Below, piece by piece: positions 7,462-43,673 of a stretch of DNA of 64,000 bases (position 1 is the first letter of the stretch; each line of letters opens with the position of its first letter). The stretch spans positions 920-64,919 of the forward strand of contig JAAYOD010000027.1 in assembly GCA_012520515.1 (NCBI GenBank), in the 5' to 3' direction. The notes beneath the pieces were generated by a model. The model made no database searches. It was not told the origin of the DNA and saw nothing but the letters and a program-made list of their open reading frames with translations. This stretch comes from Clostridiales bacterium. Its GTDB lineage: Bacteria; Bacillota; Clostridia; Christensenellales; DTU072. The position numbers and the translations under genes were made by a program.

Positions 7462-10400
7462 TTAGAATGATTCTACTATTGTAATTATGATGTGGATAGT
7501 AAAGAGCGCATTTCTCCTTGCCAAAGAGCCTCCCGTTCCGTTATCGGCGCTCTTACGCAAGATTTCTGGGTCGTCTTCAGTTATTAGCTGAAGTTCAAAG
7601 TTGCAAGTTAATAAGTAGTTTGTGCCGTCACTTGCGCAAGTGTCAATAAACATAAAGTCATTGTCACCATCAGAGAGTTTTCTCTTAGTTCCATAAAATT
7701 CACCATTTACTATACCAAAGTCTTGACTTATTATTTCATAGACATCGGCCTTATACCATGGCAAATACATTCCTGTTATGTCATTGCCTCTTGAGTAGGT
7801 GGTAGCGCCAAGCAATCTTGGATTTCTTTCCTTACCATAGATATAGTTCATTCCTAGTATGGGCAAGTTATGCAGTTCAAACTTACTTCCTTGCAATACT
7901 TTAATAGTGGGCAATACCGTTTGCGTTGTAGTGCCTGTATTTGAGTTATAAATTATGCGGTTTGCACTATTTGCGCCCCATCTTCCAGATGGATATTCAT
8001 AGTTTGGCGACACGCCTTGACCTGCATTTACATAGTTTATATTGGTGTTGTCATTAATTGATGTTTCATTGGTATTAGGCGCATATAGATTATGAATGTT
8101 AGAATCCACATCGCTAATATATGCTTCGCTGAAGCCTGAAGTATACTCAGTAAGCAGTCCATCTATTAAACCTGTCTTAGGCGGTGTAATGTAAGTTATT
8201 GTGGTACTGCCTATACCACTTATTATTATAGTTCCGCCTACTTTTTTGCTATAGCTTGGATAAGCGCGTCTTCCAAGTACTGTCCAGTCAAGCAAGGCTA
8301 TTTGATTATCGTTAAGAATTTGCACTTCGCTCTTATCTTCTAATACCTTCTTGCCAAAGTCAACGCTTTGAACATTACTATAAGTTGACGCATTCATAGT
8401 AAAGGAATAATCGGACGCATCAATATTTATGCCGTATTTGCCCATAGTATCTGATGTAGCTGAGCGCAAGTTATAATATTCAATTGGGATATAATCGCTT
8501 GCTGCAGTGCGTTGAATGTTTGTTCCGCCCACTGTATTGAATATTTGGATAAGGTTTTTAGGCAGTGTAAATTCTGTATTTGACAAGTCTGCAAGCAAGT
8601 TAGGCACATTGGAGTTTATCCACTTTCTAGTGCTGGTTGAAATAAACTTCCACCTAATAACTTGTCCGCCTTTGCCGCCCAAGGTCATGGTAGCATACTG
8701 ATTATTTTCTCCAAACTTAATTGCGCCAAAGTACCACTTATTATAGTTATCTCTATAAGTGCCGCCGCCATCTATATCGTTTATGGTGACAACGACTTCT
8801 TCGCCATTTGGCTTTGTAAAGTGCACTACATAGCTATAGTATTGGTCAAATACTACATTGCCGTCATACACAACATTGCCTTCGTCGTCTAAGACTTGGT
8901 TGCCGTCTTTGTCCTTAAGCAAGTTATGACCGTCGGTGTTATAAGTTACATTTAGGTAATTACTATAAGTTATGCCGTCAACAACGCGTCTTACTCCGCT
9001 TGTAGTAGGCAATAGTATAATATCGTCTGGGCCATAAGTGGTTGTTGAAGTAAATGCATCAATAGGACCTTCTGTGCGGAAGATAAGCGGGTCAACTTTA
9101 AACCTTAGCTTAAACACTTGGTCATCAATTGGCATGGTAAATGAAGTTGTGCGGTAGGTGTCATTATAATTAATGGTCACTCTGCCCATGCTGCCGCCTG
9201 ACCATAAAGAGTTGACTAAATATACGCTAATTTTGCTTCCATGGTCTTGTATCAGATCATCTATCTTAGCTTGAGCATTTAATCCTTCATTGGCTAAAAT
9301 GTGATTATACTCTTCATAGACCTCTTTGTTTGCAACATATGCATACACTTTATCTGGCATCTTTATACCGTCTTGTAAAATAAAGTAGTATGGGTTGGTG
9401 ATATGGTATAAGTTTTCTGTCTTATTATAGCCAAAAGCTTCTTCTAGCTTATCAAGCTCATCGCTAGACAATCCGTCCTTTAGATAATCTGCCATGCTTT
9501 GACCAAGCTTATATGGGTCGTCGCCAATATATTCTTGACCGTTTTCAGCTGCAGCATTAACAAACATAACATACTGCTCAGCTAGCTGGAATAACACTTC
9601 AGCTTCTTGCTGTCCTTTTGCTCCCATACCATAACCTGGTATTGTCATATAAAATCTTAAGCTGCCACCTTTATAATTAATGGATTGTGTAGTGTCCATT
9701 CTAAATGACATAATATGGTCTTGCTCTTCTTCAGTTAGTTTAAACTCGCCTTGGTCAGTTGCAGCGCGGTCTAATGTATAGATAAATGGATCTTCAAATC
9801 CTACAAAGTATACTTGGAATTCCGTAGTCGGCACTGCAAAAATGTCATTGATAAGCGCTCTATTTATGTTGGCTTGACCAATGTAATCGTATACCCTTAT
9901 CTTGAAGGTATTGGGGTCTGACTTAAACACATTTGGCGTAAAGCCCATAGTTGCTTTTGTCTTGTCAATTTCTCTTGATTTTATGTTGACAGGATAGGTA
10001 ATGCTTTGTCTTGCTGTGCCTTGACCTATGACAGCATCAACTGTGTAATAGCCGCCCTTATAGCTGAATTTTACTCTAGAGTCATTAAACCTAAGTCCTA
10101 ACTTATCAGAGCCTGGCTGGTCTGCAATTAAGTCAAAGTAGATATAATGTACGCCCTTTTCAAGTACTGTTATATGTGTGCCTGTGTAGATATCGTAGTC
10201 AGACGCTCTAAGTTTTAGCTTAACGCCATACTGACCTGTCTTTAGATATCCTTGTTCAAACTGTGCAAAGCCGTTTACTGAGTTGTTATAAACTAAGAAT
10301 GGGTCAAATTCAAATCCGCTTACAAGCTCGTTGCTGCTGTTTGCAAAGGTAGTAAAGTTAGGAGCGTTATCTTCATTAAACATTATTTGTTCAATGCTTC

Positions 10401-36400: not shown

Positions 36401-39400
36401 AATAATGGCTGAACTTCGTTTCCTGTAGCTACGCTTAGCACAATATGCTTAGCTATTGCGCTTGCTGCGCCAGGCGCATTCATTGCGGCATTCTTTATAT
36501 CTTGTTCACTGCCTGAAGGTGTTGCTTCATCGTCTAAAATTATGCCAAACTCAGCTGCAATAACTTTTAGTATGCTTCTTGCGTCAGCTATCCTTATAGC
36601 ATCTGCATTAAGGAAAGCAAGGTCTATATAGACATCCAAAATGCCTTCATCGTCTATAATAAAGTAAATGGACGCCACATCGCCTAACAAATAATCGCCA
36701 GCTCTGCCCATAACTTCATTCCAATAATACGCATTAATCTCAGCATTGGAAGTCAGGTGCGCAATTTCGCTAGATAACGACCTTTCCATTTCCTCTAGCA
36801 TAGCCACGCCGTCGGTGTCGCCAGTAATTCCTAAAAGATTTTTGTAAGCTACATAAGCTTCTGCTTTGTTATACTTACTCTTTCTTAAAACATCATTAAG
36901 TACACTTCTTAAGTTTTTGTTATATTCGCTTTCATATTCTTCTTGGTTGGTTTTGCTAGTCAAGCTTAAGAATATCTCAATATTTTTCAAATTCTTAAGG
37001 GTATCTAAATTAATGTTGGCGCTTATATTAAAATATGTAGCCTGGCTAAATATATCTACATTATCCATATGCAATTGCATACCGATTTCTGGGTCGCGAC
37101 CGTTTAGCCAGTACCTTGTAAACATACTTACTACATAGTCAAAGTTATATATAGAGTTATTGGAATTTTCATCTACAATTAATTCAAAACTTGTAACGCC
37201 CGACAAAGCAATTCCCACATTTGTCAACTCTTCCATTTCGTCATAGTCTACAAGTTCATTATCATAATAGTACTTGGTTTCACCGTCTTGCTCTACAGTT
37301 TGCACTATATCAATTTCTTGCTTGTCAAATCCTACATTTATGCCGCCTACCTTAATTCCCATTTCGGTAGCATAATTTTCTCCGTCTAAAACGACATTGC
37401 CTGCTTTATCCAAATAAATTTTTGCGCCTAAAGTCAGCTCTTCTTTAAATCTTAAGTAAGCTTCTAGACCAAATTCCATTTCCTCAAAGCTTTGGCTAAG
37501 GTCAAGTCCAAGCACATTCAAAACTTCCACTACTGCAGCCTTAGCAATACCAATTTTAATATTGCCATCTTTAAGCATAAATTGGATATACGCGCGGGCA
37601 ACAGATTGTACAGCAGCATTTTTTACTGCCATACTTGCGCTAGAGTTTTGACTTGGATCAGGCTCTTCTGACTCTTCATTCTCAGAGTCTTTTCCTATAT
37701 TATCAATAATTTTCGTAATATCTTTAATAAGGTCTGTATCAAGCAAGTCCGTGATAAAGGTGTTATCAAAGACATCCATTATTCCTTGGAAAACATTGTC
37801 AAGGTTTTTAATAACAACATTGCCAATTCCAAATAATTGCGTAGAAATGTATATGTCGCCTGTAAGCGTTGCATCATTAACACCAGCGCTAGTGCCGTCA
37901 TAAATTACTGTAAGCACTACATCGCTTTGGTCATTTTGAGCAATAATCCTAGTTACTGTAATTTTGAATATGCTCTTATAGATATTGTCAAAGTCTAGCC
38001 ATGCTTGAATGTGGAATAATAGTGACGCGTCTTGGTCGCCTAAAAATTCCGCCATAATACGCATGCCTATTTCATCTAAAACAACAAGTACAGCTCCCCC
38101 AACAAGCTTATCCCACGCAAGCGCTTTATGAATATCGTCGCCTGGCGTTGATGATGCGTACTCTGGCTTTTTGTCTATGTTGGTTTTTATCTCAGTAGCA
38201 GCGGCATTATATCTTGACTGCTTTTCTTTAATCTTTTTTTCATAATCTTCATCTATGTCTTTATTTGCTTCTAAAAATTCGCCAAGCGCATCCCAAGCCG
38301 CCGCTTTAATTGTGGTTTCCGAGGCGCTTATAGAGCTATTATTTTTTGTTGTTTGATAAATTTCATCTAATTCTGACTTAAAGAACGCTGAATTGCTAAA
38401 TATTTTGCTTACAGCATTGGTAAAGTCATAAGCATTTTTATCAGAGCCGTCCTCTGTTTGATTGCTAAGATTAAGCTCCAAGCTAGCCTCAACATATATT
38501 CCGTCAGGAACGCCGTCTGTCGTTTGCTTATATTCGTCGGTATTTATAATAGGCTTATAATCTTCTCTCTTGCTTGGGTCTAAGCTAGCTCTTATATTTC
38601 CTATGCTAACAGTAATTGTGTATGTATCTTCTATCACTACCGACAAGTCAACATCAAGTCCGCTATTAAAGTCTAGCTTTAATGCAAGCTCATTTATCCT
38701 AAATATACTTGCTATGGTTTCTGCTCCAGCTATCTTTAATAGTGTGGTTATTGCAGCTTCTCCCACAACCAATGATATCGCATGCGCGTTATATTGAAGG
38801 GCCAAGGTTATTGGTATTTGATTGGGAATAGCGGCATTTGCGTCAAACCTAGCTGTAGGCAGCGCGCCATTTTGACTGGGATTTAGCTGATTGTTATATT
38901 CGTCAATGTCGCTGTTTTGGCTAATTACAATGGGCTGGCGATTAGCGCTTGCGTTTGCCGCCACAACAACATTTTCCATCATCACTCTTCTATTTTTTAT
39001 GCGATAATAGGTTACTGCTTTAAGTTCACTTTCGCTAATATTTCTTGCCTTATACTGACTGTCCACAGCTTCTTTTACAGCTTGCGCCAAGCGCTCTATA
39101 TAAAGCTGTTGAAACTCTTGTGTCTGGCGGATTTCATAAATTCTCATATCTTTATATTTGCCGCCATAAATGCCGTCTTTATCTATTCTCATTTCGCTAG
39201 CAAGTATTGAGCTAGTCGTTCTTTCTAGCGTTTTATAGGCATTGCTCTTTAGGTATACAGCTTCTAAGAATGTAAGTATCTCATCAGTGGTGCTTACCAC
39301 AATATAATTGCCTTCAGCGTCTTCGCTTCTTACCTGCCAATTACCCTTTTGGGTATCCATGAGCGTAAGTACTGATTGAGGAGTTTTGGTAGAGTTGTAA

Positions 39401-42400
39401 GTAGCGTCCCAAATTTCGCTATACCTTTCTACAATATCATTGTAGTTACTGTATGCGCTAGCTTTTATGATATTGGAAAACAAGATATCCAAATCGGTAT
39501 CTACAATACCCATGGAATCATTAACTCTCTTTTGAATTTCCCTTCTTTCTTCTTCTAGCGCATCCACATCAAAAACAACTGTGGCGCCTGACGCTTTAAC
39601 TGGCTCTATTGTGGCATAATATTCATACTGGCCATTGGAGAGATTTCTCCTATTAACAATAATATTCATGCTAGAAAAATCATAACTATAATCTTCTAGC
39701 GGAATTAATTCATTAGAGAAGTCATCATAATCAAAGTAAAGGTCTAAGTGTTGCTTAAAGTACACATATATTAAAGTATTTGTATCGTTTGCTTTAGGGC
39801 TAGGTTTTGGTCTTACTATATATTTATAGCTATCTGTTCTATAATTTCTAGCCGTTGCGTTTGTTGGATAGAATGTATCCATAAAATACTCTAGCACAGT
39901 ATCGTCGTATACCATATCTAAAAGGTTGCGCTTAGAGTTATAGTAAAGCTCTTCATCTATATCCGCATGACCTGTAGCGTCATATAGATTGTTCCAAATT
40001 AGCGCCATTGCGCCATTGTAAGTGCCTTTAAGCTGAGTAATAGACAGTGGATTTATGCCAAGATAGGACAAATCGATATAAGCTGTGTCATTTGTGATAT
40101 AAACGCCCAAAATTATTTGATAAATAAGGTTATCAAATGCCTTATAGCCAGAGTTTACTTGACTGCTTCTGTCAAATATAACTAAGGAAATATCGCTCTT
40201 TAATAAGTCATTTATATTGATATTGCCTTTAAGCGCGATTCCAAGCTTTAGCCCTGTATCATACCAATAGTCATTGTCTATTTGAAGCGCTATTGCCTTT
40301 AAGATATCTTGCAGCATTCCTTCAGAATTTTCTTCGCCGCCAAATAGCACACCAAGGTATTCATTTAACTGTTCAGGAATCAAAATCTCTTTGTTTGCGT
40401 CCACTTGCAAGGTGATTTCTAGGTTAACTGACACTACCAAATTTTTGGTGTATTGCTCAAGGGACACAAAATCGCTTGCCACAAATGCGCCTACAAAGTC
40501 AATATCATTACCTTTCTTTAAGTTAATAGTGTCAATTAAACAAATTTCCAGCACAATTACTTCAATATCTTCATTAGTGCTGTCCAAAATTCCCAAATGA
40601 AGTTTTATATATTCGCTATCAACTAATTGCGCCGTTTGTTGCCTATTACCATGCTCATCTAATATAAATTCGCCATTTTCATCTTTTCTGTCGGTGTATT
40701 TATAAAGCACCTTGCCGTCTTCATCTCTAAGCCATTTTGTGCCTAAATGGAATTGCAAGCTACCGTTTACTTTTGGCAATTCACTAGTAAAATCTATACC
40801 AGCAAGCCCAGCTACTACGCTAAGTATTTGGCTGTTTACCATTACATTTAGCACATCGTCTTTAATTAGTATGCCATCTATAGCGTCACCAATCAGCTTA
40901 AGGATATTGTTAGATTCACTGTCGCCTATGTCCACTTGACCATTCTCAACGGAAGCGTTTTCAAATAAATTAAAGCTAGCGTTAGCAATGCCAAGCATAT
41001 CTGCTATGCCGCCTAAATCAAGGTTAATTCCGCTAAGAATTTTGCGTATGCCCACATTTGGCACAACTAGCTTTGGCAACCCGCCGTCAACAATATTAAG
41101 TAGCGGGAAAACTGCCTTTAGCTGTGTTGCCAAATCATACTTATTCCCCGATTCGTCAGGCAGTCTTGGCTCTGTATCTATATATAACTCATCGCTTATG
41201 CCGGAGTAATAAATACTCATAAAAGGATATGGATGAGATAATGTATATGTAGGGTCAAATTTAAGCATTTCTTGGTCGTTTATATACAAATCGACAAGTA
41301 GCGCCGTATCGGAAAACTTAAGCAGATTAAGTCCAGCTTGAATTCTATAAGTGATAGGCAAACGCATACCTTCTGCGCCAATGCCAAGGGATACAAAAGT
41401 ATTTTCTATAAATGCCCCAACTAAACCGCTAAAGTCCACTCCGCCGTCTGACTGATTGGTGCCAATAGTGATATTGCCTTCAATGGTGGCTCCATATTTT
41501 AGCTCACCCGACATGTCTCTGAAGTTAGCGCGCAAGTTAGCTGCATTTTCCATAACATTGCCTTCACTATCAATGCCTACTGCAGACAAGTCCATATAAG
41601 GCGGCACAAAGTAGCTAATGCCTGTGCTATATGTGCCATCTGCCCGCTCTTCGCCAATGCCTAGGCTAAGCGACAAGCTCTCTGTAATATCAAGGCGTAA
41701 ATTTATAGAATTAAAGATAGACGCTGTATCAAAACCAATAGACACGCCCTGAATTCCTACATTGGCATCTTTAATAAACATACCTAGTATGCTGTTTAAC
41801 GCATAGTTGTCAAGGTCTATAGAAAATTTGCTGTCGTCGCCTTCAGGGAAATGCAAATACTTAAAATCTTGAGGGTCGCTGCTGTTTGTTTCAACAAGTA
41901 TGCCAATGAGCTTCATTATGTCAAAAGACGCCCCGTCTTCCCCATCTGCCGCCGCATTGTTGCCACGCGTTGCTGAAGTGGTGTTTGCATAGTAAGGGTC
42001 TATATATCTCATAAACTTGCTAAGCAGTCCGGGTATTTCACTGTCGCCTGCAAGAAGCTTGGTTAGGTTAATGTTAGGCAGCCTTAATTGCGGCAAAAAC
42101 TGTCTTCCGCCGCTAGTTAAGTTATGCGTGTCGATATACGCTGTACACATCAGCACCGTTTCACCCGTTCGCATTTCAAGGTCGGGCACAAGATATATCG
42201 CCGCTATCTCTACATTATTATAAGAAAATGCCACCTTGGCATAGTTATTTTCATTGTCAAATAAATCAATGGCAAGCGCCACATTTACATCAAATCGATA
42301 GCTTGTAGCGTCGCCTAGCTTTAGAGGCATTTGTCCAAGCGCGCCAAGGTCGCCTAACATATTGCCTAAAAGAGAATTTAACGTAACTTCTTCGCCTGGA

Positions 42401-43566
42401 TTGGTGTTGGTAATATCCAAAACTCCGTTAAACTCTAAGTTAGTTAAGCTTCCCTTAACATAAGTAGTCCCCTTTCCCCTTTCTCCTAAGTTAAGACCGT
42501 CAAATCTTATAGACACGCTGTCTTTATTGCTTGCGGCAAGCTTAAATGGACTAACTTCAAAATTAAAGTCAAATTCGCCAGTATCTGTTACTATATCGAT
42601 ACCAAAGCCATTAAAAATATAATCTTGTTTTTGTGTGCCGTCAGCTTGATTGACTGTACCTAATTGAGTTACGGCATAGACATTAGTTGTCATAGACGGC
42701 CAGTCTTTTGCAATAATGCTGGCCAAGCTAAATCCAAACAGCTTCTCCATAAGCCCGTCAAGGTTGGGCAATCCAAAAGCTTCCCAGCCGATTATAAGCT
42801 CAAAAAACCCAGGTATGCTTATCTTTCCGCTAGTTATCATACCCATGATAAAATCAAGCTTTAGCCTTTGGTTTATGTACTGCATCTTTTCATCGGCGCT
42901 GTACTCCACTATGCAGTTAGAGTTGTCAAAGAGCATACCCCAAAGCAAAGGCACAAAGCTGGCAATAGCGTCAATGTCCACTTGCCCGTGCAAGCAGTGT
43001 CCCACAAACCTTACAATATCAATGTCAGCTTGGTCTAGCGTATCTGAAAGCAGCTTGCCCAAAGTAGCCATATTGAGCTGCTCTGTGTACATTCTCCTGC
43101 CGCCAATATTTAAATACAGTGTGGATTGTCCATAGTATATTCCAACCTTAACAGTGTCGCTGTAAACATCTTTAAGCTCAATAAATACATTGCTTCTGTT
43201 GTTATCTTTTAAGTTGATGTTAGCTTTTACTGTAAGGGAAAAATCGTCTTTTTTCTTTATAGCTTTGGAATAAACTTCGCCTACCTTTTGGTATTGAGTA
43301 AGCTGAAACCTTAAAACAAAATCGATATTATACCACTCAGGGTCTGTATAAATGGTGTTGTCCATATTACTGATGGACTTGCTTATGTAATCCCAAGCCG
43401 TAGCTTTGCTGACAGAAACTAAGCGGTTGGTAGGCCCGCTGTCAATGATAGGCCCTTTGCCTGTATCTGTATCCGTTTGCGGTCTTTCTGAGCACGCGAC
43501 AAGACTGGCCATTAAGGCTATACAAAAGACTAATATTAAAATTTTGAACAGTCTATGTCTTCGCAC
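7462..43566 (-). CDS. Giant (12,034 aa) lipoprotein-type cell-surface protein, modular, function unknown
   Basis: A single ORF of 36,105 nt with no in-frame stop. It has a GTG start 6 nt after AGGAG and an N-terminal lipoprotein signal peptide. The ORF track shows no alternative-frame ORF above 139 codons across the interval. The architecture is described in the sub-features. Confidence 0.9.
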   Translation of the reverse strand: MRRHRLFKILILVFCIALMASLVACSERPQTDTDTGKGPIIDSGPTNRLVSVSKATAWDYISKSISNMDNTIYTDPEWYNIDFVLRFQLTQYQKVGEVYSKAIKKKDDFSLTVKANINLKDNNRSNVFIELKDVYSDTVKVGIYYGQSTLYLNIGGRRMYTEQLNMATLGKLLSDTLDQADIDIVRFVGHCLHGQVDIDAIASFVPLLWGMLFDNSNCIVEYSADEKMQYINQRLKLDFIMGMITSGKISIPGFFELIIGWEAFGLPNLDGLMEKLFGFSLASIIAKDWPSMTTNVYAVTQLGTVNQADGTQKQDYIFNGFGIDIVTDTGEFDFNFEVSPFKLAASNKDSVSIRFDGLNLGERGKGTTYVKGSLTNLEFNGVLDITNTNPGEEVTLNSLLGNMLGDLGALGQMPLKLGDATSYRFDVNVALAIDLFDNENNYAKVAFSYNNVEIAAIYLVPDLEMRTGETVLMCTAYIDTHNLTSGGRQFLPQLRLPNINLTKLLAGDSEIPGLLSKFMRYIDPYYANTTSATRGNNAAADGEDGASFDIMKLIGILVETNSSDPQDFKYLHFPEGDDSKFSIDLDNYALNSILGMFIKDANVGIQGVSIGFDTASIFNSINLRLDITESLSLSLGIGEERADGTYSTGISYFVPPYMDLSAVGIDSEGNVMENAANLRANFRDMSGELKYGATIEGNITIGTNQSDGGVDFSGLVGAFIENTFVSLGIGAEGMRLPITYRIQAGLNLLKFSDTALLVDLYINDQEMLKFDPTYTLSHPYPFMSIYYSGISDELYIDTEPRLPDESGNKYDLATQLKAVFPLLNIVDGGLPKLVVPNVGIRKILSGINLDLGGIADMLGIANASFNLFENASVENGQVDIGDSESNNILKLIGDAIDGILIKDDVLNVMVNSQILSVVAGLAGIDFTSELPKVNGSLQFHLGTKWLRDEDGKVLYKYTDRKDENGEFILDEHGNRQQTAQLVDSEYIKLHLGILDSTNEDIEVIVLEICLIDTINLKKGNDIDFVGAFVASDFVSLEQYTKNLVVSVNLEITLQVDANKEILIPEQLNEYLGVLFGGEENSEGMLQDILKAIALQIDNDYWYDTGLKLGIALKGNININDLLKSDISLVIFDRSSQVNSGYKAFDNLIYQIILGVYITNDTAYIDLSYLGINPLSITQLKGTYNGAMALIWNNLYDATGHADIDEELYYNSKRNLLDMVYDDTVLEYFMDTFYPTNATARNYRTDSYKYIVRPKPSPKANDTNTLIYVYFKQHLDLYFDYDDFSNELIPLEDYSYDFSSMNIIVNRRNLSNGQYEYYATIEPVKASGATVVFDVDALEEERREIQKRVNDSMGIVDTDLDILFSNIIKASAYSNYNDIVERYSEIWDATYNSTKTPQSVLTLMDTQKGNWQVRSEDAEGNYIVVSTTDEILTFLEAVYLKSNAYKTLERTTSSILASEMRIDKDGIYGGKYKDMRIYEIRQTQEFQQLYIERLAQAVKEAVDSQYKARNISESELKAVTYYRIKNRRVMMENVVVAANASANRQPIVISQNSDIDEYNNQLNPSQNGALPTARFDANAAIPNQIPITLALQYNAHAISLVVGEAAITTLLKIAGAETIASIFRINELALKLDFNSGLDVDLSVVIEDTYTITVSIGNIRASLDPSKREDYKPIINTDEYKQTTDGVPDGIYVEASLELNLSNQTEDGSDKNAYDFTNAVSKIFSNSAFFKSELDEIYQTTKNNSSISASETTIKAAAWDALGEFLEANKDIDEDYEKKIKEKQSRYNAAATEIKTNIDKKPEYASSTPGDDIHKALAWDKLVGGAVLVVLDEIGMRIMAEFLGDQDASLLFHIQAWLDFDNIYKSIFKITVTRIIAQNDQSDVVLTVIYDGTSAGVNDATLTGDIYISTQLFGIGNVVIKNLDNVFQGIMDVFDNTFITDLLDTDLIKDITKIIDNIGKDSENEESEEPDPSQNSSASMAVKNAAVQSVARAYIQFMLKDGNIKIGIAKAAVVEVLNVLGLDLSQSFEEMEFGLEAYLRFKEELTLGAKIYLDKAGNVVLDGENYATEMGIKVGGINVGFDKQEIDIVQTVEQDGETKYYYDNELVDYDEMEELTNVGIALSGVTSFELIVDENSNNSIYNFDYVVSMFTRYWLNGRDPEIGMQLHMDNVDIFSQATYFNISANINLDTLKNLKNIEIFLSLTSKTNQEEYESEYNKNLRSVLNDVLRKSKYNKAEAYVAYKNLLGITGDTDGVAMLEEMERSLSSEIAHLTSNAEINAYYWNEVMGRAGDYLLGDVASIYFIIDDEGILDVYIDLAFLNADAIRIADARSILKVIAAEFGIILDDEATPSGSEQDIKNAAMNAPGAASAIAKHIVLSVATGNEVQPLLLKVTGAAIFGLLQAMGLDLERYFGAYTPSIELELLNNQEILNLNIILEDLFSLKAAINYPKINLTNSISQAIEKRKYTTIDENWDADIKIFMEGELDLGALDPEDLGDNLGHLSTINFGELLRGLLGDESFALDVILKTINSVALNLNFRLEAKINIVKLYSQIKMYLEEMKEYDKLSEAQKTQTAKPSINLAALGVEAYLEITGKFRLDESEEEKLIIGIYLIPQGDTLNLYLDLNALNMGRVKISDIQNTATALTNRISDLFTKDDDSSDEEEEVTKYNFEGTLGEVLAVIKMRNQVEENIDKTKTYEYYNASDINGGQGSFENDIRNAAGLPDGAVAFTDYIKGVIGNSYGFTVTAAANVLIKILNEAFNDEKSRSVRSFRALIENIIREDQVADINAIYSKIQTMDEALVLYDLSKADAWSYLVGEIFGEAERIEAQNTYATAQEVLQDIYEDGYAYVRYNPDTKKDETVEVDGILTVYNNMVGHLSNAMVDIETYNQYLSEYNKLLNAYNKLLENDVDLYPETITAQEKTPPSEPAPITTVNIRTRAWNKYYENLHAQAERAEQLLGLDLENEVLAYAREYTAYFVKGISLENLVREARAKLNAMNEAVEKARAYADERLARGEISQAQRQQEEDMFAYDYFTGKNTWNSEDAKLYVSLYTIHKASNNNNDIIGKQRAWQDIKQTISSVYSTIIDAMTAVNAIMVEQDSDYQLSAGAFIINDGLYEEYNHTQSLIWKATVWDIILDTLCASDDRKLIIVDDTEDSGTMPEPTPPKSDDDLSRADILERLSKYNMHTDYYLVTMLTDVANARRSITKTEYLYTAWKYYYQDVQRVLSGADGYIYQYIFNYEYDSNGKIIAAVPATETKEINGVTIEMIKMAAIQINNEKEYKNNVYQNQLSYLDALYVDSADKTAENIITAAGDYGQIQLNILYNNSLIGVEGEVANLNIGINFITAGLNINDNDLTKRVKKIEENEFGEISETEVMQVIDSEYLDSLGFVEIDETFTYIYASMDIDFSWDMAENAKYDFSDLIASMLGGIEFNHNTISLAPVLQVLDGIKGEFRIRLEAKINLFDIINGSDASITLFKLEDNGEYKQLLQIIYGTHDEGSFVYVDAESFNIQKLYIVDAIDYVRSLLRNSPYPVGIDYNEEGSLSRFVVAAMSKAYLEQDINSGAQNAAGSQHPSIDLLIKDSGFVVQIGANAIYSLLSFLGMGDVRSMISKIGEPGIEINVFGQDLFEFNLELFSITESGQAVQSQYIRLGVALNNVTLSLDQDAQISFDEQRDLEWDANGDPVGFARMREQLPPVRIETTILLDLDANEYSTEGAGSVPLDELEPLKSLLKLKQGDGDDYLLLYTILDIALLIKGNTKMTIAVDIKANLDFGDGTNTDYLQNLIDNSEIQIQLRVYRDANGIVINSNRVYATITYYEQNLYIDLSNLGGDKIYIEKVGEKIFGSSAQNSALNAAILDLKNAFGNSAKIGASIDITSSGLFLIVRKAAIVSLMQILGLSGFDMFDEAAVQLYIIGKEKGENDFGNSLRVGLQIGVGTNSMQPGVVDPNGNVDLNEILGIGVCLDGILVGFTKADLAVSGTEEYKKIGVVDTLYVTTHLALSLTADSGVYTFGQLLKMLLANSTLGFERDLAPVLELVEDLDSSLYLGVSLTVNINAILDELQAQIGLYRNYADSVNKTNALILLTYIRGDVYIDTSGISSGNFFLGKVKLSNIMDIIEILTSSGDESNLAFIEDMNDYQGLMNPQNRSSVYDDLDAVVATARLVIDVINGVMVELVDNVLITIADALLDLRDADNNKIYLSDYVKGITMPELTVGVTNSATIYIDIGLPSAVYNDSEYIAFTEILNKTKSDYLMDDIWVEYDNDDWKEILKDNDLYKLYSISNEEKIEYVNNWLKGRTDAADICQEFIGAFSSRHDKLTLGDIKALVFNYIVILAYKDISDATSTMFSLSFEREESVLAPKLIAYYNDHLKQLAWNQYYQYLVANDDMAMVNVMNTMLQEQNGNKTLAYNMFVASPALTRTQREALAIYYNENANKKDIDKLFDIAPDQGTAYIELIINLVSSIFIRQNAWLTYLERHIYQSAAGEYIYTGLYEEMYRYQKAYAWDAYYETAYTYEKALMLNALQYAQARYGTNHSAHVIKAYAFDKFKEYLAEFASLMETGLLEDNVHILKYIIYYQSMLAYYGADYDVTVGENYLTSDEMYDVLIKTVEGIQEYNLANSIMLNQYKETAIAYDLIFERDNLYITVTDIYQDVANASTPSEIVKDIRARIARKLGQSELSKISNQFADLIVNQSDSATCASRFVARVNGTWSASLQEYIVDSQELNELLASYKTGAYSIKETSWNRLVEYELASIIHTDINLNGEGGDSPFENSNNLQGSQNSFEYNIKKYFEQKGYTITINNLLPLYLAYAELSVSGGQEYVTYFEQAKAYTDNLVTQNYAYFVNICNDYGYGEDGYLVDIYKAVRTFARLIKIFDEHNIVLQQSLMERLVAIANKDFTNLSASAYLEFMSDYKGISQEDNQKLLANINYIYNMYSYLLDTEKDVYTATLSQVNQSLRLLLQLDSIEQNAIRFKGSVDIIDIEQLPKVHLYLAYYEILSRIGENNEHVVWVNNFLDGELAGQIAPEKYSLAAIKLNLLLDRLQSQGQDELVEYCLQIIREFLASQFQNLSIEVWQARMVDELYTHSTLNEAETAAEVGRITQLLYRLRDKNHAKRIAWDNAYFYQSTQQAVKQLNDIINSIVFERLYSSDNYLVVLNDIMIKAYTNEIDTELNAIFAQLGAYSLENVQDILRYDQGLQAESSAYYLDIVAKKNYLDSQLSAVMSNISGQAYSQWTIIEKAIAFRDIINVASQNPQSLIAEITNYIAIYQREIKNFIAENFDLVLALGAQAISASVSFYDEYLIALYNELYARISNYLSFIEAAQNPESILYGIEQNPTPSAKSLFDFAMLISQAVENGEIVIASADLALYNFVDTLIADHIEIISYNLEVLPQSAKLQIAEYLLVKLYHGTYNFVSGVLATRFEDFVQSLYNIANNNYNLVMDQFELDLCSLFAAYFDNIYNINAELVEAVSYAQAHGATNSQKMYEFLFTSKLNGYSFGSIIDGYTVIFRRYNEVNFDSLYLRSANFANAFDAIYNNIKSEIYNNNPSLIGLITEVEYNEQISQGQRTAALIEKIRNTGLDITVQLSNYIDEYQSVYAALFTDRSLLTVDILQTYLSDMEEYYKTSFGSDWQHTKDKLDIVDEILNAPDAQDIRSYIISSCGFVEKSNFLSTYLNMVGKLSNKQLVDLGKLTLNQIIVGDIATNIDTDMSHLISALGSYSLVNAWSILGFDEAFRQQSAQLFDEIIDYKDRYQNQLSTAMSSVNGQSYATWKVYDRAFAMNSYSEKEKLNSDGIAEIMAISNSYTRAEAITLLSVYDKVTKLIDSSILNQDAISFVTSLDSVLAEALVQRLQAYQEVINASIDTYSYQIKQLSSAKIFELYNIVNSALDAQEFVLLTEDIDLYLAIEHIVQNYGDIESMTDAVKIDTAFMVAKQLFAGDYILTTSIDNLVNAFVESYVAKCNQNSAQYRALSIELDKYILLENYQKVNSVLNSVSLNNAASIFVTEFMELMSATLHASLLSYTEGQLLSELNAVAATNIDSIVAIITSFGAGNIPLNSVDSQYYNIAVRLINACGAYANWNNQARFKAACILSLDCFVGNYTLGADLNTLWTDFVELYYEKCVENLAAYNNVIAEIGIETLVSNGAKYFEQIKDIIDNLTLIAEGIAATGKESYANMFRLAQSIEGHFDSLIDNYADIYESNANISYQSMIYRNVTAARELADIYNELRDVAMSEPSVLAIFIALESSWQLSVEDKALYLPGVVEAIMATASDLTNYQLALAKYEEIKYSGFAKAFSELYNEIIQLASLSPSLVHIVNDAQMENKGDVILEALYLPTLIQNIRESGAAINMLLSSALSKADAYLGSIFLERNLLTREIVEKTLGDYKDMEEFNKIVSDLTLIEKINNANNLTELREAMSLSSQYLKAVSFPGSFMGVVNFMGSSELESLISNSIIVVSTFNDVYLKAEEKRFDQANVRLGIKILGEVDGNLSTSVKVDVKSTYIDENGKPTSTIKDLIDDQEKETYTEYSDLTLRVNINATLSNLLLKGSLNMQDVLNAINFGSLINMEDLTVDLDVAFLESHTLQVTISGALGINFKDLFSQDINKINNSIIGDITLTYMLIDHDTSGHIPRFKQIIVHVWIYGNQIYVQGEVFDSKLNLNISDFNLGELLLSNLGVDYLSSQEDQEQNQAVAAINSDIIKAYTNGREDLNAFEQLYLLKNSAENVPLSNAVEALVRMTKQDTSLILTVDLLVEVMNALLSGQDFQADYYDILSMLLTRSGISIEYGQDFGLNVNLSKTGDTAKGEAGYEFDLTLLHDTLISLDRQEYNTLHQALELKESLDEFRDFFKIDEIANRFAIKFSLTLEADMLRHILDWSALFKKEQFSTIFQLRFLKDLKGKLRLDFAVDIDLSLTALDFMVSGYNSHDVNIFNIYFVGGRINYETGDGSEWDPKIYINGGDAHDTKIVLTPEAGHNFLNLNFVNMFFMLINSESRYDIVQNASYNASGDELEEGESLGSFANVDWGSIFDSITFGKGTIGIKLASSLLQAIISGMFNLDFEQLGNITLQLDFVNNELLLNIPIDAPILDGQDNEVVPSKLNFSIGIGKVNINLGPSRLFFGEKQETLFTGYQQFDTFIWVSEVNSSLHINDDFNTVIDITQITSFLIDNLGLRIMGTEELDIQIDFALRTYIDFADLSRFRLELEILWGDGKRILDLAYIGRPENSSSTGDVYVDLSGLGLPKITVTNIDLGSLIKEILGKLDDEPLESVENASFSAPINDVDNTQSDAEKVASNYPSIKDMPFGSNMLLFMCSSEEVSIAITGALLLSLLDSLNHTTNGALPEIINHIPVFSYLKVGRDDNDNVTGIQLVLDENRQFTIKYNFNKSYTHLVNRYNLNTIDDMVIVGDNIDKNSYTNIDKLENLHLSATMDITINTVDPKTNGKSQTVRDLEDFLEKLLDVQPDTILLDLQDTIMTFTINLELGIDLKDFNNSIIKVEIYYNDEVLFGIYYVDGIAYLDLSTLGLFKLSLNGVDIAGLLFSLLSGTDLIGPDGVDVSGLLGNLLDASQNTESTKNTLKSSSYQNIGEIRLELNEEAFDYLFDFRNSGSITDGNYEDIAVKIGRVEHLLTRYLKLLKEQDYVDIDDLERVSRELQDYSGSVSYIEEIYQLVKDLDVENMLPEEIQSVQEEIIETLDKVDIGVSAISAKQKFLLGLEFAKIDYYLDANAVYKEFLEELKLRDKKEDTTTKTQTTGIVSLYLTNKTLTLSPNSAAINALMPGLGLPELDSIKFVMNTYEGMTNFEGTIKIDSQNNRLQLTVPTNGLVIKINDGVGEGILGTNIPMSELITLPSDLDGYGGTGGLSVNANGVNLNMLGLINGVFDGIMINGLSIYLDKRTDYWERKEYFDRYPAVHATGPYSYADDDAPYDGSEMATSAEVLGAIGPLIKTITALAGIIGGDLSKIRDLIENGSDLINGAQGENLTPGLFYRYQYARGKLKLTKSVTNNIDIEIQTLTYTQGTIYAHVENHALLVTLSNQFNLDLKIYKLPLAGIINGLAGPEFDNPGVALPIVLFPDSLLGGGNIAQTGDTGRIHGRVLESADGEEIPVENAVVVYTTGGNKTYRTTTDKDGYFYFLEIPITQKATGTMLLDHLDKKTITMEYDGNLMYFTDGNINYVKKKGDVNYYIVQDRGNIAIYKEGYSSYFVEDLLIQPAELSQSHRINATLVNSKNSIANTVTLTGKTYYYSGTSSNPSNQELVNSANLTAVSNIKVIHNGGANSVISGKMAGAGSFNLDITVYQELIEHYNGENDLYHNFSCKLEGYELIAIRYNGSVYYTAQDLNALINSTATNGGGTVSVDFIMKKDKVRSVTFSGTIKAYDEVEQKWIVPSSDDYEIWITYQSKTMGVVDYYDLSPENYNINVDKDGNFSFTAIEDTSTTPATRGFDLEKVGEISYVFKIRSTKYDNLNIAATGLQKGDSMSFVATQDSSDTTRATQGIISLTETYTQDSVTYASNFNVDVNLGERKKHWADDIKNNSLIQRIRIRLGADIIDGEYHDEGDNGNQAYDNSYKDVLDNIQYEVSKVADRYNSYTYIELWLDSDSLNTILLGALGMLYNMIGLTDVAANTTISAEDISLKDKTKSEDFNPSFYTDEELLIKREKLVSDFVDRWRGRYNEAQDIRIGDKVYTVRGAYLQAVNSAGTKLSAGLVHFLICEYGLTMIKGGHITLPFTDQPISVNDFVGFALYSPKVYTELIGMIPYAGGVLSTILSTVFEGIDKLLEDVSTLLAHVLPIQSAYSLFGSKDMPGSPLSSYKTYFDNDGQVVQLANVAVSDGSLKSVNIIRDVNTYDMSVYAKITLNSSAQAGYLERITLFLNGASFSQASELQDLDDDYHEKNQMDPFFAMQGGDWNYEYWKSTGKVGKFFTKTTSYETIRTPVADITTDDGDPVGEYYHNITLRNQGVTDIDRLFTKERDSLSEYETYEVIDEQGNKTSEYMMYDIVQTDSGKVFASDVAYHDDPSATYSIKSVDIKHMVIIREGEITGNVYFTDSTFTNVQTTYSAYPVYVDENFKLTTDTGNGNVRCTTEMFMQYWIANTNYNSYAVINEYYIDPYTDEKVIYNQHFIYDNEANPKEDIYQEIDIANNGIGFRKVADVSFTNDKFYYIAYDKLTEIWTKKRYLPPTSITFHDPFDMTDFTAFGGTWANSDGATGERRNIDPSISLVDILPNRYYANFTDGTSKGTQGVNIAWDVSALSFDALGTGDGTERLKGYIGNAVYSTIAVKVEPFKIDITDENAPPILQELTEIEIDPYNFDHDQFINSLPEFFYYEYTSGIGEKTKTKTYLFNDLVWSLDYQVIDGAMKFTSLDYSNGNKNTYIDLSFRAYGEDNTGASFASNTPYTNIQIPIKVKDYTVKQVEKAVEGSVGGIVNDEKTPSSYHGNISFNALNADDPYGIMKAIADGTMVEKEDGTMEIVPNAFDKVMVNHTYLDESTGKYVNTVIDNWEIVLGSFRVLRNADGSSLASYDNTNSEEQEYTVTYKVRDGIGNTQTIKILVRIESNEINNDLSYVYKDGAKVLLGSNEAVEIITPYTSNRNASLMERLSLAKDIYVVYASGYEEKASLGDDYTITTEIVAMPSQNEQRYTLTSVTIIKGDDFSYVIPNMDYKANKDYTVYAVIGKLGYTQVEMDLLITEKLFDNLNRQYSENRAITKAYDMLEASLNKYEKSLLKNILVSVRNDKVRAWNTWYNRYLDEESIYHSPADALKMDIMLAKAKLTYLNISYNEAKVLAYRQFVSDNTITVTNPITRVASVAIEKVYDEIVASNPELSVDTLQRMTFDAWYNDYTRKYCTLTRRVESRVAIGAETVTISRTNGILNELADNANIWFQNQDQTINTEVVWLIKALGIDISDSYDGMLLNSDIILKDNLLGNQLVRGVGIQVSQVIIEGIQIGNDRAIAINAYDESTIDQFLNFNYYNCDLSGNTNAFYISIMLGNSGGSILDIPSGAQGFNSAIWELATTSQEYTGVHNTDLDKLYKVKWSYVDDTNNNGDYTDDGLTYHNNGQIGAHKIQITVQNKGYDTNPNWRSNVIIDLTKVSKFYDGSYPITNIQADATITDIAIVNDNISVTKDATYQGQNARYILALDPSKVDLSEVITFKVTFANGSTMDLDGYIDIPEDNTEFYNKASLTVANGLVFGDKHNNKQSFDVVLRNTALREFTEISSIMYKNSQGEVIDLSTDFLCGAYDNLENYLPVTATIEGVRNNHLDQETLSVTFRNIEKYYSDGLTAQGTKPKATAYIGDKTFGYVLREVSLNIYAEELISIESIVYKDGTEEDYEKAKSINVDPYGAINIEWLQENYTRARIKTNMLADGQEPILGVEKIVSLNLNMQDIDLEDYANVNGNNFAAKSYTVNHGMGNTVENGADGSFDIRFYGTISVNLVDSNITSLSIYKGDEEISHTDPTMSYDLEGTIYNPFNFNSPDYKYKITYASGMRELVTGQNIVWKNLDNIIYNEHGGVYTVQALISAGSISQTIEVRVKVNKAIATDIVVIHGQENVEYNYLNMAPDNTLLNLEIEPYDGFVKLPEKVLVKLEGDEENTTQEVFVEWHYQDILSRMTIAGGSYTKANNRAAKATIYVLVDSYDENGNLVKVRAGEQTLDVDVIVKDRSIKHYEVSYDGQNYIALEDLVYSAKYNSDYYTNELLINPYTLQNAIIADQKFNTNAWTYSENFGERIHKYRYLDEDRKEVKGTITSIADDQNITYFDKNKVIVIAKYNEKTDSYNYYEKDGRTPASQVHLSMILGIYESQDNFAYFTSVRVACNGKDFEGNDYYRYYTLRKDNYVIYDSDKQGKTLTTDLYKGRNVTLEITVGEAMVDGINKNSLTCAQDALSLRVAPLKNANGDFEKDLRVRILDMSYQSGLDKDIYYVDIYGLIDSFDTSVVYPEKGLTQREILGKDSVKYFRTDGGVREEIVKYTFDNIYYNGDNINDIYFEIISMSGSGETFSVELKELRRSGGKINCSGGVGKLVVTFGNDDESFAGGKQVFNIPICYVDRSIEQIMFNEDNAPNFTTFANSSNELVSGFEFDPFLVYNNSVNGFAQFEQGYLKTGQYGVKLKLRASDYDIYTGTHITVLEKGVHYIYFDLIADQPGSDKLGLRFNDSRVKFSYKGGYYTVDAVIGQGTARQSITYPVNIKSREIDKTKATMGFTPNVFKSDPNTFKIRVYDYIGQANINRALINDIFAVPTTEFQVYFVGFEDPFIYTLDRAATDQGEFKLTEEEQDHIMSFRMDTTQSINYKGGSLRFYMTIPGYGMGAKGQQEAEVLFQLAEQYVMFVNAAAENGQEYIGDDPYKLGQSMADYLKDGLSSDELDKLEEAFGYNKTENLYHITNPYYFILQDGIKMPDKVYAYVANKEVYEEYNHILANEGLNAQAKIDDLIQDHGSKISVYLVNSLWSGGSMGRVTINYNDTYRTTSFTMPIDDQVFKLRFKVDPLIFRTEGPIDAFTSTTTYGPDDIILLPTTSGVRRVVDGITYSNYLNVTYNTDGHNLLKDKDGNQVLDDEGNVVYDGNVVFDQYYSYVVHFTKPNGEEVVVTINDIDGGGTYRDNYNKWYFGAIKFGENNQYATMTLGGKGGQVIRWKFISTSTRKWINSNVPNLLADLSNTEFTLPKNLIQIFNTVGGTNIQRTAASDYIPIEYYNLRSATSDTMGKYGINIDASDYSFTMNASTYSNVQSVDFGKKVLEDKSEVQILNDNQIALLDWTVLGRRAYPSYSKKVGGTIIISGIGSTTITYITPPKTGLIDGLLTEYTSGFSEAYISDVDSNIHNLYAPNTNETSINDNTNINYVNAGQGVSPNYEYPSGRWGANSANRIIYNSNTGTTTQTVLPTIKVLQGSKFELHNLPILGMNYIYGKERNPRLLGATTYSRGNDITGMYLPWYKADVYEIISQDFGIVNGEFYGTKRKLSDGDNDFMFIDTCASDGTNYLLTCNFELQLITEDDPEILRKSADNGTGGSLARRNALFTIHIIITIVESF
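19027..19278 (-). other. Carboxypeptidase-regulatory-like (transthyretin-like beta-sandwich) domain
   Basis: GRIHGRVLESADGEEIPVENAVVVYTTGGNKTYRTTTDKDGYFYFLEIP (G8097 at nt 19276-19278) fits the G.V.d..G.Pi..A.V......t.TD..G.F.f..l pattern of CarboxypepD_reg domains. A second, similar unit lies at 18241-18450 (VTFSGTIKAYDE...VDKDGNFSFTAIED). Confidence 0.6.
19380..23640 (-). repeat. Six further copies of the beta-rich module (second block, after the helical core)
   Basis: I-Y anchors lie at aa ~6651 (HVWIYGNQIYVQGEVFDSKLNLNISDFNLGELL), 6942, 7227/7241 (GDVYVDLSGLGLPKITVTNIDLGSLI, 21781-21860), 7517 (FGIYYVDGIAYLDLSTLGLFKLSLNGVDIAGLL, 20941-21030), 7765 and 8028. Spacing is ~250-300 aa. Confidence 0.65.
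24145..30850 (-). other. Alpha-helical core region (aa ~4240-6475), rich in A/L/Y/N/E/Q
   Basis: The translation changes character at ...SEYIAFTEILNKTKSDY (aa 4243, nt 30840) and again at ...STFNDVYLKAEEKRFDQ (aa ~6475, nt ~24145). Between these points there are no beta-module signatures, only long amphipathic heptad-like stretches (for example AYAWDAYYETAYTYEKALMLNALQYAQARY). The helical assignment is by composition only. Confidence 0.55.
24190..28120 (-). repeat. Divergent tandem duplication inside the helical core (units of ~538 and ~767 aa)
   Basis: FAQLGAYSLENVQDILRYDQGLQAESSAYYLDIV...SAVMSNISGQAYSQWTIIEKAIAF (from aa 5183, nt 28020) aligns with ISALGSYSLVNAWSILGFDEAFRQQSAQLFDEII...STAMSSVNGQSYATWKVYDRAFAM (G5725). 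The offset is 538 aa. AALFTDRSLLTVDILQTYLSDMEEY (F5609) aligns with GSIFLERNLLTREIVEKTLGDYKDMEEF (F6376), an offset of 767 aa. The sub-motif KLYHGTYNFV..FVQSLY / QLFAGDYILT..FVESYV / CFVGNYTLGA..FVELYY occurs three times. The nucleotide sequences are diverged. Confidence 0.7.
30850..43150 (-). repeat. Ten divergent copies of a ~300-aa beta-rich module (N-terminal block)
   Basis: Each copy has a recurring protein signature. It starts with h.h.L.A.INL.d (FSLTVKANINL, YFNISANINL, FRLEAKINIV, FRIRLEAKINLF, VDIKANLDF, LTVNINAIL). About 40-60 aa later comes h-I-Y-Y...(L/V)-Y-(I/L)-D-(L/T)-S..LG..KI.I....L..LL. The I-Y anchors are at aa ~143, 457, 785, 1155, 1888, 2300, 2610, 3496, 3821 and 4091. 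Examples: TAYIDLSYLGINPLSITQL (40021-40110), NLYLDLNALNMGRVKISDI (near 35650-35760), NLYIDLSNLGGDKIYIEKV (32041-32120), DVYIDTSGISSGNFFLGKVKLSNI (near 31200-31320). Confidence 0.7.
43492..43566 (-). other. Lipoprotein signal peptide with lipobox (LVA-C25)
   Basis: MRRHRLFKILILVFCIALMASLVAC|SERPQ has a basic n-region, a hydrophobic core and an L-V-A-C lipobox. The Cys25 codon is at 43492-43494. Confidence 0.8.
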
Positions 43567-43577
43567 TATACGCTCCT
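43564..43577 (-). promoter_or_regulatory. Ribosome-binding site and GTG start of the giant gene
   Basis: The minus strand reads AGGAG (43577-43573), cgtata, GTG (43566-43564), a 6-nt spacing. Confidence 0.8.
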
Positions 43578-43625: not shown

Positions 43626-43654
43626 ATTATACTCCTGAAGGCGCGCATTGTCAA
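43626..43654 (-). promoter_or_regulatory. Perfect sigma-A/sigma-70 consensus promoter of the giant gene
   Basis: The minus strand reads TTGACA (43654-43649), a 17-nt spacer atgcgcgccttcaggag, then TATAAT (43631-43626). The predicted TSS is near 43619, giving a ~50-nt leader. Confidence 0.75.
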
Positions 43655-43673
43655 TAACTATGCGCGTTTTTTT
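43642..43673. promoter_or_regulatory. 7-bp inverted repeat bracketing the -35 box; terminator-like only on the + strand
   Basis: The + strand reads CGCGCAT (43642-43648), tgtcaataact, ATGCGCG (43660-43666), followed by T7 (43667-43673). On the minus strand the same hairpin is preceded by A7 and has no U-tail. The loop and right arm overlap the -35 hexamer and spacer of the giant-gene promoter. Confidence 0.5.

Follow-up and report, generated by a model that had tools for sequence, protein, structure and literature searches.

The window analysed here is a stretch of 64,000 nucleotides from a Clostridiales bacterium (contig JAAYOD010000027.1, assembly GCA_012520515.1), and our subject is a single giant gene on its minus strand, an open reading frame (ORF) of 12,034 codons with a GTG start (7462..43566). 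A reading of the sequence made beforehand without database searches (the sequence-only reading) had described this gene as one uninterrupted 36,105-nt ORF; the ORF list and our own translation, with zero internal stops, confirm this. Given the base composition of the ORF, the probability of meeting no stop over this length is about 1e-394. Apart from the giant ORF, the interval contains a single ORF of 120 aa or more, a 139-aa frame on the plus strand (42716..43135), in agreement with the earlier statement that no other frame exceeds 139 codons. The product has a computed mass of 1.348 MDa, close to the 1.3 MDa estimated earlier, and an isoelectric point (pI) of 4.44; the gene accounts for 2.3% of the 1.56-Mb contig (1,562,155 bp). 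No DNA tandem repeats were found within it by Tandem Repeats Finder and its GC content (0.36-0.40) equals that of the flanks; there is therefore no sign of a collapsed-repeat or chimeric assembly. The public protein collection holds the gene only as a 749-aa fragment (P0003; window 7465-9711) starting at an internal Met (aa 11286). Evidently, the gene-calling pipeline truncates giant genes.

The giant gene is preceded by a sigma-70-type promoter with 12/12 consensus matches (TTGACA, 17 nt, TATAAT; 43626..43654, minus strand) and by the ribosome-binding site AGGAG (43573..43577, minus), which is separated by a 6-nt spacer from the GTG at 43564-43566. At the other end, a hairpin with a 10-bp stem (AGCAGCCUA...UAGGCUGCU; approximately 7403..7435, minus) begins 27 nt past the stop codon at 7462-7464. 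Its folding energy is favourable (ΔG -17.9 kcal/mol, z -2.9), its T tail is weak, and a consensus terminator scan did not call it, there being no clean T run. Of the complete set of expression signals claimed earlier, the promoter, the AGGAG plus GTG and the Cys25 lipobox thus hold up, while the terminator stands only in part. A 7-bp GC-rich inverted repeat (CGCGCAT/ATGCGCG; 43642-43673), followed by seven Ts on the plus strand, holds the -35 hexamer of the giant gene inside its loop; it looks like an antisense-transcription terminator or a regulator-binding site.

The first 25 residues (43492..43566, minus) form a predicted lipoprotein signal peptide, the N-terminus reading MRRHRLFKILILVFCIALMASLVAC followed by SERPQ, with a lipobox L-V-A-C ending at Cys25. 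Its layout of charged n-region (MRRHR), h-region (LFKILILVFCIALMAS) and lipobox (LVAC, then Ser) agrees with the sequence criteria for a bacterial lipoprotein. A lipobox is also present in every relative whose N-terminus could be seen, in the versions AAC, ASC, VGC, VAC, FAC, IGC, LSC and AGC, so that the earlier description of a single gene with a lipoprotein signal extends to its homologues. Tat export, suggested by the RRHR of the n-region, was ruled out by the lack of the twin arginine in the homologues. The signal peptide is the sole hydrophobic segment of transmembrane grade in the whole protein. The motif LPxT[GAN] occurs once, at aa 10255 of 12034, remote from the C-terminus, and the C-terminus itself (...LFTIHIIITIVESF) is not of sortase type, having no charged tail and no segment of transmembrane grade nearby. 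SLH, choline-binding and other wall-binding repeats gave no Pfam match, either in 15 overlapping 1,000-aa slices (E<=0.01) or in ten 500-aa C-terminal slices (E<=1). Pfam and the motif scans are thus in accord with the earlier view that LPXTG, SLH and choline-binding anchors are absent. The product is most likely an N-terminally lipidated, Sec-exported surface protein, which would lie beyond the membrane. In the sequence-only reading the N-terminal lipid would be the only tether; the conserved C-terminal domain and the transglutaminase-like partner lipoprotein described below may permit another one, either non-covalent or through cross-linking.

Four 'lYiDLS.LG' motifs that stand out by eye served to seed a hidden Markov model (HMM), which on iteration converged on a repeated module of about 310 positions. 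This unit HMM, built solely from the copies in the window protein, marks 14 units of about 300 aa within the N-terminal 7,700 aa, in four groups separated by three inserts, all on the minus strand. Units 1-4 (aa 33-346, 347-671, 672-1016 and 1017-1325; 39592..43470) are followed by insert 1 (aa 1326-1759; 38290..39591), which is low in Gly and Pro and is missing or far shorter in relatives of 7-8 thousand aa. Units 5-7 (aa 1760-2081, 2082-2451 and 2452-2826; 35089..38289) precede insert 2 (aa 2827-3374; 33445..35088), which has helix-type periodicity and is missing in these short-form relatives. Units 8-10 (aa 3375-3668, 3669-3974 and 3975-4280; 30727..33444) lead into insert 3 (aa 4281-6507, about 2,230 aa; 24046..30726), low in Gly and Pro and helix-biased, and units 11-14 (aa 6508-6842, 6843-7122, 7123-7405 and 7406-7705; 20452..24045) complete the array. 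The units share only 10-20% identity with one another, and self-BLASTP of the whole protein gives just 5 weak pairs (24-29% identity). Together with the lack of DNA tandem repeats, this supports the earlier impression that the protein consists of long modules that have diverged strongly, and not of short repeats that are nearly identical.

The same array can be recognised in relatives, where the unit HMM finds 14 contiguous units in P0011, P0012 and P0021, 13 in P0016 and 12 in P0017 and P0027. The best partner of a given unit is the unit of the same number in 14/14 cases for P0012, 13/14 for P0011 and 12/14 for P0021, with a score 2-5 times that of the next best in most units. This positional orthology across relatives indicates an ancient array whose units have kept their number and order and have not been homogenised. 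In short-form relatives the units are contiguous, whereas in the window protein they are interrupted after units 4, 7 and 10. Residues ~4,240-6,470 of the window protein have no counterpart in any of the six complete short-form proteins. Inserts 1 and 2 and the first ~430 aa of insert 3 are common to the relatives L004-L009, all from metagenome-assembled genomes (MAGs), and a long-form clade therefore exists. A metagenome-contig scan using aa 5000-6200, within the central insert, turned up no relative, so that aa ~4,700-6,500 are documented for this genome alone. A few diverged repeats of about 230 aa are present in insert 3 (aa 5161-5392, 5699-5926 and 5947-6092). The Gly plus Pro content of the inserts is half that of the units, and in inserts 2 and 3 the hydrophobic periodicity is also more of the helix type; from this crude composition and hydrophobic-moment measure we infer that the inserts are helical. 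Judged by alignment, the window protein (12,034 aa) represents a long form of the family, the short form measuring 7.1-7.9 thousand aa.

Beyond the array lies a beta-biased distal region (aa 7706-11734; 8365..20451, minus). Together with the C-terminal domain it makes up the distal 4,300 aa, which have beta-type composition and hydrophobic periodicity. No internal repeats were detected in the distal region by self-BLASTP, and it is collinear with the C-terminal halves of relatives at 22-34% identity. The last 300 residues (aa 11735-12034; 7465..8364, minus) stand out in the family alignment as a conserved C-terminal domain, in which W11761, the AYP after it and several Tyr, Pro and Leu residues are invariant in 9 family members; this domain has no Pfam or PDB match. 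A polymorphic toxin of the Rhs, CdiA or MafB type was ruled out, the last ~300 aa being conserved with invariant residues. Past the stop codon the next ORFs are on the opposite strand, and no gene continues on the strand of the giant gene.

Recognised domains are all but absent from this protein. In fifteen overlapping 1,000-aa slices, no Pfam family exceeded its gathering score, and the only recurrent signal was CarboxypepD_reg/DUF6795. This would be a carboxypeptidase-regulatory-like beta-sandwich of about 70 aa (aa ~8099-8171; 19054..19272, minus), which in a 500-aa slice scored 27.8 bits for DUF6795 (gathering score 27.4) and 28.2 bits for CarboxypepD_reg (PF13620; gathering score 32.3). 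Relatives carry precomputed CarboxypepD_reg matches. If genuine, the beta-sandwich makes up about 0.6% of the protein and is no basis for classifying it. Big_9, CARDB and Cadherin_5 appeared only at E-values of 0.008-0.3. NCBIfam gave nothing credible in any slice, and neither three slices that together cover the protein, nor profiles of the unit and of the C-terminal domain, nor a 292-aa partner protein gave a meaningful match in a PDB sequence search. The Pfam and NCBIfam slices contain no catalytic or cytoplasmic domain, as had been proposed for the catalytic part. About 99% of the length is thus without a Pfam, NCBIfam or PDB match; the sequence-only reading, which recognised no family for about two thirds of it, was right in direction and understated the extent. 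A profile match to a characterised adhesin family, which that reading had named as a finding that would refute its claim, was searched for and none was found.

Homologues of the giant protein are few and collinear. Scanning a single genome for each GTDB species brought up seven loci with a top identity of 73%, the MAGs concerned being labelled Clostridia bacterium, Bacillota bacterium or uncultured Christensenella sp. Each locus with 10 kb of downstream DNA contained a homologous ORF of more than 4,500 codons, still open at the end of the DNA examined; six of the MAG loci are collinear with the first 4,500 aa of the window protein at 31-73% identity, and alignment to its aa 1-4,700 gives 31-68%. 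A word-indexed protein search with aa 1-1200 yielded only two fragments (47-51% identity), and the same kind of search with the 14-unit profile as query yielded no matches. An exhaustive HMMER search with an N-terminal profile retrieved only 56 matches among 1.84 billion representative proteins, six of them complete proteins of 7,125-7,879 aa whose collinearity with the window protein runs from end to end, signal peptide and final residues included. Separate homologues were found for the C-terminal 1,200 aa (32-75% identity), and the metagenome contig L010 matches aa 9,095-12,001 by BLASTX in a single frame (34% identity). Overall, the collinear homologues, in MAGs labelled Clostridia or Christensenella, are 25-73% identical to the window protein. 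They come from sources that include digester-type as well as human- or animal-associated metagenomes. One relative, MFA5448907.1, is named 'carboxypeptidase-like regulatory domain-containing protein' at NCBI, the others being unnamed or 'hypothetical', and our full-text literature search found no publication on this giant lipoprotein family.

Comparison with the two closest relatives over the first 4,000 codons, taken in blocks of 500, gives a ratio of nonsynonymous to synonymous differences per site (pN/pS) of 0.17-0.30 in each block. Since pS is saturated, the true dN/dS must lie below the measured pN/pS. The giant gene is real and under purifying selection. The family is also found in pieces, its homologues being fragmented in several metagenome assemblies. 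On the Logan contig carrying the L010 homologue (L010:3-8933), gene calls divide it into products of 1,758 and 1,172 aa despite the single-frame BLASTX alignment, a split likely caused by an in-frame stop or an assembly error. On an ENA scaffold, a 'complete' version of 1,696 aa (L002:1392-6482) has the same N-terminus as L006:10001-23666, whose ORF exceeds 4,555 aa; this short version is probably due to an assembly frameshift or a strain-level truncation.

To obtain a view of the unit fold, we turned to structure prediction by AlphaFold2 (AF2). A model of aa 1-1200 from a 3-sequence alignment had a predicted local distance difference test (pLDDT) score of 32.6 and was discarded; a model of aa 26-1016 from a 40-sequence orthologue alignment had a mean pLDDT of 72.8, with values of 80-95 over aa ~45-525. 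Units 1-2 are predicted as mixed alpha/beta: a helix at the N-terminus is accompanied by hairpins whose strands are 15-21 residues long, by shorter strands and by helical segments, amounting to roughly eleven strands and seven helices per unit. Foldseek found no significant match to this model of units 1-2 in the PDB. The lowest E-values (6e-4) belonged to TbpB-type beta-barrel lipoproteins at a probability of 0.23. Among the matches listed, only Mycobacterium tuberculosis LprG had Foldseek probabilities above 0.5 (0.82 and 0.72). Its superposition gives template modelling (TM) scores of 0.32-0.34 normalised to LprG and about 0.1 normalised to the query, with a root-mean-square deviation (rmsd) of about 11 Å (for 3mh8_A, probability 0.82, TM score 0.34 normalised to the target, rmsd 10.8 Å, E 1e-2). 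LolA-like entries reached probabilities of 0.35-0.41, and MucB, LptD and MTP were further weak matches. We regard the predicted resemblance to LprG and LolA as a lead only and not as a classification; the model points to a fold without a significant solved counterpart for units 1-2. A phage-fibre origin is without support, a Foldseek search of the viral structures in BFVD having returned nothing.

Two genes accompany the giant gene on its upstream side. The nearer one (43812..44668, minus) encodes a partner of about 288 aa with sub-threshold similarity to DUF4380/DUF6786; the farther one (44678..48028, minus) encodes a transglutaminase-like lipoprotein of 1,116 aa, with the lipobox ITGC and Big_2 and Transglut_core domains. 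The sequence of the latter includes ...AVCDG..., ...GHAWN... and ...MVDTTW..., which we take to be the Cys, His and Asp positions of the family. Among the 11 loci with context, the transglutaminase-like lipoprotein gene is upstream of the giant gene in 9 and a gene for a protein of about 285 aa in 8. Both are also present at distant short-form loci, reaching L012, L013, L015 and L017. In the window, the ~288-aa partner gene carries one frameshift beside an A8 run (near 44343-44381) that splits it into ORFs of 103 and 140 aa; compared to eight relatives, the N-terminal ORF is 53-72% identical and the C-terminal ORF 35-59%. Possible explanations of the frameshift are a sequencing error, a pseudogene and a switch prone to slippage. 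In the window, the cluster adjoins a mini-RNase III gene, rlmB and a sigH-like sigma-factor gene, of which at least the first two are adjacent to it in eight relatives too. The homologue and neighbour search called for earlier has thus yielded a collinear family with conserved upstream genes. The rest of the window is core chromosome, with greA, lysS, tmk, holB and a PSP1-domain gene. A foreign or mobile origin of the giant gene was ruled out by its uniform GC content and this core-gene context, and the family looks vertically inherited rather than mobile.

The reading we favour, to which we give a slightly better than even chance, is that the giant gene encodes a fixed-design, very acidic surface fibre or adhesin of an undescribed giant lipoprotein family in uncultured Clostridia. 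The adhesive or scaffolding role, like the fibre shape and the action of the partners, is what we infer from location and architecture. We propose that transcription starts at the gene's own consensus promoter and that the product would be exported unfolded by Sec, lipidated at Cys25 and cleaved by signal peptidase II, leaving it tethered to the outer face of the cytoplasmic membrane. From there the very acidic chain, with its many domains, would reach through and past the wall as a long fibre whose length is defined. Its proximal part would consist of the 14 non-interchangeable alpha/beta units, here spaced by three helix-rich inserts, and the beta-rich distal 4,300 aa with their one beta-sandwich would lead to the conserved end domain of about 300 aa as the working (binding) end. 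The transglutaminase-like lipoprotein and the ~285-aa protein would probably process, cross-link or mount the giant protein. The sole domain match in the giant protein, the beta-sandwich, is of an extracytoplasmic type. The fixed set of 14 units, the conserved C-terminal domain and the conserved partners together point to a specific selected structure rather than to a generic sticky stalk.

Several observations sit less well with a fibre or adhesin. A fixed, non-homogenised array is unlike the usual adhesin stalks, whose copy number drifts, and the 14-unit design may point to a machine-like or ruler-like role instead. No adhesin-type domain passes threshold in the Pfam slices, Big, cadherin and CARDB all remaining below it, and the weak structural leads (LprG, LolA, MucB, LptD and MTP) are lipid-binding and not adhesin folds. 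Composition and hydrophobic-moment statistics are the sole basis for calling the distal region beta-rich and the inserts helical. The frameshift in the partner gene, if real, casts doubt on the full function of the system in this genome.

Some of these same features would suit a lipid or glycolipid conduit or carrier, in which each unit is a LolA/LprG-like open beta half-barrel with helices and the stacked units form a hydrophobic groove that spans the envelope over a defined length, an arrangement that we think unlikely. The strict conservation of how many units there are and how they are ordered is what a ruler or conduit, and not a stalk, would lead one to expect, the modelled strands are very long (15-21 residues), and LprG, with the only listed Foldseek probabilities above 0.5, is joined by weaker matches to the LolA superfamily, MucB, LptD and MTP. 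However, with TM scores of 0.32-0.34 to LprG and about 0.1 to the query, and E-values of at least 6e-4, the similarity is not significant, the lowest-E matches are TbpB-type beta-barrels rather than grooves, and helix-rich inserts of up to 2,200 aa would interrupt a continuous groove. It is likewise improbable, in our estimation, that the protein is a lipid-anchored analogue, in a Gram-positive lineage, of AsmA/TamB/YhdP and VPS13, of independent origin and far larger: AsmA, DUF490 and DUF3971 have no Pfam matches, and no bridge-like lipid-transfer protein is among the 50 Foldseek matches listed. If true, the conduit would imply an unusual envelope, or a cell-to-cell device for lipid transfer or partner contact, in small-genome anaerobes. 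A different use of the 14 distinct, positionally conserved units, which would suit 'one copy of each part', is a polyprotein precursor cut by a transglutaminase-fold cysteine protease into unit-sized pieces that form a surface layer or coat of fixed stoichiometry. The candidate protease is at hand, the transglutaminase-like lipoprotein being a conserved neighbour across the whole family with Cys, His and Asp motif positions that appear intact. We nevertheless consider this improbable, as the lipid anchor would stay on the first piece alone and no conserved cleavage motif was noticed at unit boundaries in the unit alignment, in which no dedicated search was made.

The neighbourhood of the giant gene raises the doubtful alternative of a glycan-related surface platform that captures or presents carbohydrate, for example GlcNAc-containing polymers, and is serviced by sugar-handling neighbours. 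In the short-form clade, genes for ROK and PIG-L proteins lie between the 283-aa partner gene and the giant gene, the 283-aa partner is itself faintly like DUF4380/DUF6786, GH20 or GH3 genes are near some loci, and a GH31 glycosidase and an MFS_2 sugar transporter are encoded within 20 kb in the window. The ROK and PIG-L genes are, however, missing at the window locus and in its close relatives, and Pfam detected no carbohydrate-binding module or glycoside-hydrolase domain across the 12,034 aa. Lastly, the possibility that the ORF is misassembled, chimeric or decaying, and not expressed as one protein, could appeal to the lone 749-aa internal-Met fragment in the public collection, to the fragmentation of homologues noted above and to the frameshifted neighbouring partner gene. 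It is nonetheless barely credible, considering that 36,105 nt contain no stop, that the protein is collinear with complete orthologues of 7-8 thousand aa assembled independently in several projects, that pN/pS is well under 1, and that composition is uniform with no DNA repeats to mislead an assembler.

Set beside known systems, a fibre of this kind would resemble Ebh-like giants in its megadalton size, Sec export, acidity, presumed extended surface form and in the noticeable share of a small genome taken by one gene. In Ebh, short helical repeats (FIVAR/GA) that closely resemble one another number in the dozens, and the anchor is a C-terminal membrane-spanning segment. The window protein, in contrast, has neither Pfam repeats nor DNA tandem repeats, its units are 10-20% identical and positionally orthologous, and its anchor is an N-terminal lipobox; the near-identical tandem repeats of variable copy number that characterise repeat-homogenised adhesins of the Ebh, Bap, SiiE and LapA type are absent from it. 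It shares with LprG and LolA-fold lipoproteins its lipoprotein nature and an antiparallel beta-sheet packed on helices in the model, LprG being the highest-probability Foldseek match, whereas those proteins are single domains of about 200 aa with no sequence similarity to the units. AsmA-like proteins, TamB and YhdP are likewise very long and beta-rich, with an N-terminal membrane anchor, structure-level repetition and a defined length; they belong, however, to diderms, have an N-terminal transmembrane helix and form recognisable Pfam families, whereas the giant protein has a lipobox and inserts that interrupt its array.

Giant proteins have also been described in other bacteria. According to their description (PMC12863079), Giant1-5 of Apilactobacillus kunkeei, a Firmicute with a genome of about 1.5 Mb, are extracellular proteins of 3,000-8,000 aa, largely unannotated and approached by structure prediction only; Giant1-4 begin with a beta-solenoid of the kind seen in serine-rich repeat proteins and are reported to evolve through recombination (PMC12863079). 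This description sets them apart from the window protein, with its lipobox, alpha/beta units and collinearly conserved architecture. In a survey of giant genes, full-length giants, mostly from Omnitrophota, have many transmembrane regions, with SecA-DEAD-like domains in most of them (West-Roberts et al. 2023, bioRxiv 10.1101/2023.11.21.568195), and those of Clostridia, of 10,000-30,000 aa, carry arrays of RCC1, Listeria-Bacteroides repeat, YG, dockerin or LRR (bioRxiv 10.1101/2023.11.21.568195). The giant gene studied here is like these in exceeding 30 kb, in being mostly unannotated and in being prone to fragmentation by assembly and gene calling (bioRxiv 10.1101/2023.11.21.568195). By Pfam and hydrophobicity, however, RCC1, Listeria-Bacteroides, YG, dockerin, LRR and SecA/DEAD domains and multiple transmembrane regions are all missing from its product.

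Giant bacterial surface proteins are thus already known; what is new here is the near-total lack of recognisable domains, the conserved 14-unit plan and the partners. Bacterial genes of more than 30 kb are rare and most known ones are arrays of recognisable repeats, whereas this single protein is explained by no profile library or solved structure, and yet belongs to a conserved family. A surface organelle this large could shape attachment to partners or hosts, and units 1-2 would provide a confident model of a new fold. The family also illustrates how gene callers and assemblers hide giant proteins.

Other genes were noted around the giant gene at its various loci. In the short-form clade, a 440-aa ROK-family protein is encoded directly upstream of it (L013:5517-7700, L015:5469-7703, L017:5515-7659 and L012:8322-9647) and is followed by a PIG-L-family deacetylase in 3/4 loci; both genes are missing at the locus of the window and in its close relatives. 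Directly downstream of the giant gene, a 2,046-aa protein with RCC1/WD40_RLD, Big_3 and Big_2 domains is encoded at L013:31726-37866 and L017:31556-37696, and an unannotated 2,140-aa protein is encoded near the giant gene in L012. Within 20 kb of the giant gene in the window are genes for the GH31 glycosidase, the MFS_2 sugar transporter and an MBG_2-domain protein (50760-53126, 61211-62704 and 62735-63760, all minus), and GH20 or GH3 genes are nearby at some relatives' loci. Downstream of the giant gene, on the opposite strand, an McrBC-like pair (AAA_5, sub-threshold; DUF2357) and a 245-aa ORF occupy 2719-7240 (plus), preceded by three ORFs of ~280-307 aa without Pfam match (51-2676, plus); the region 51-7240 may be a defence islet.

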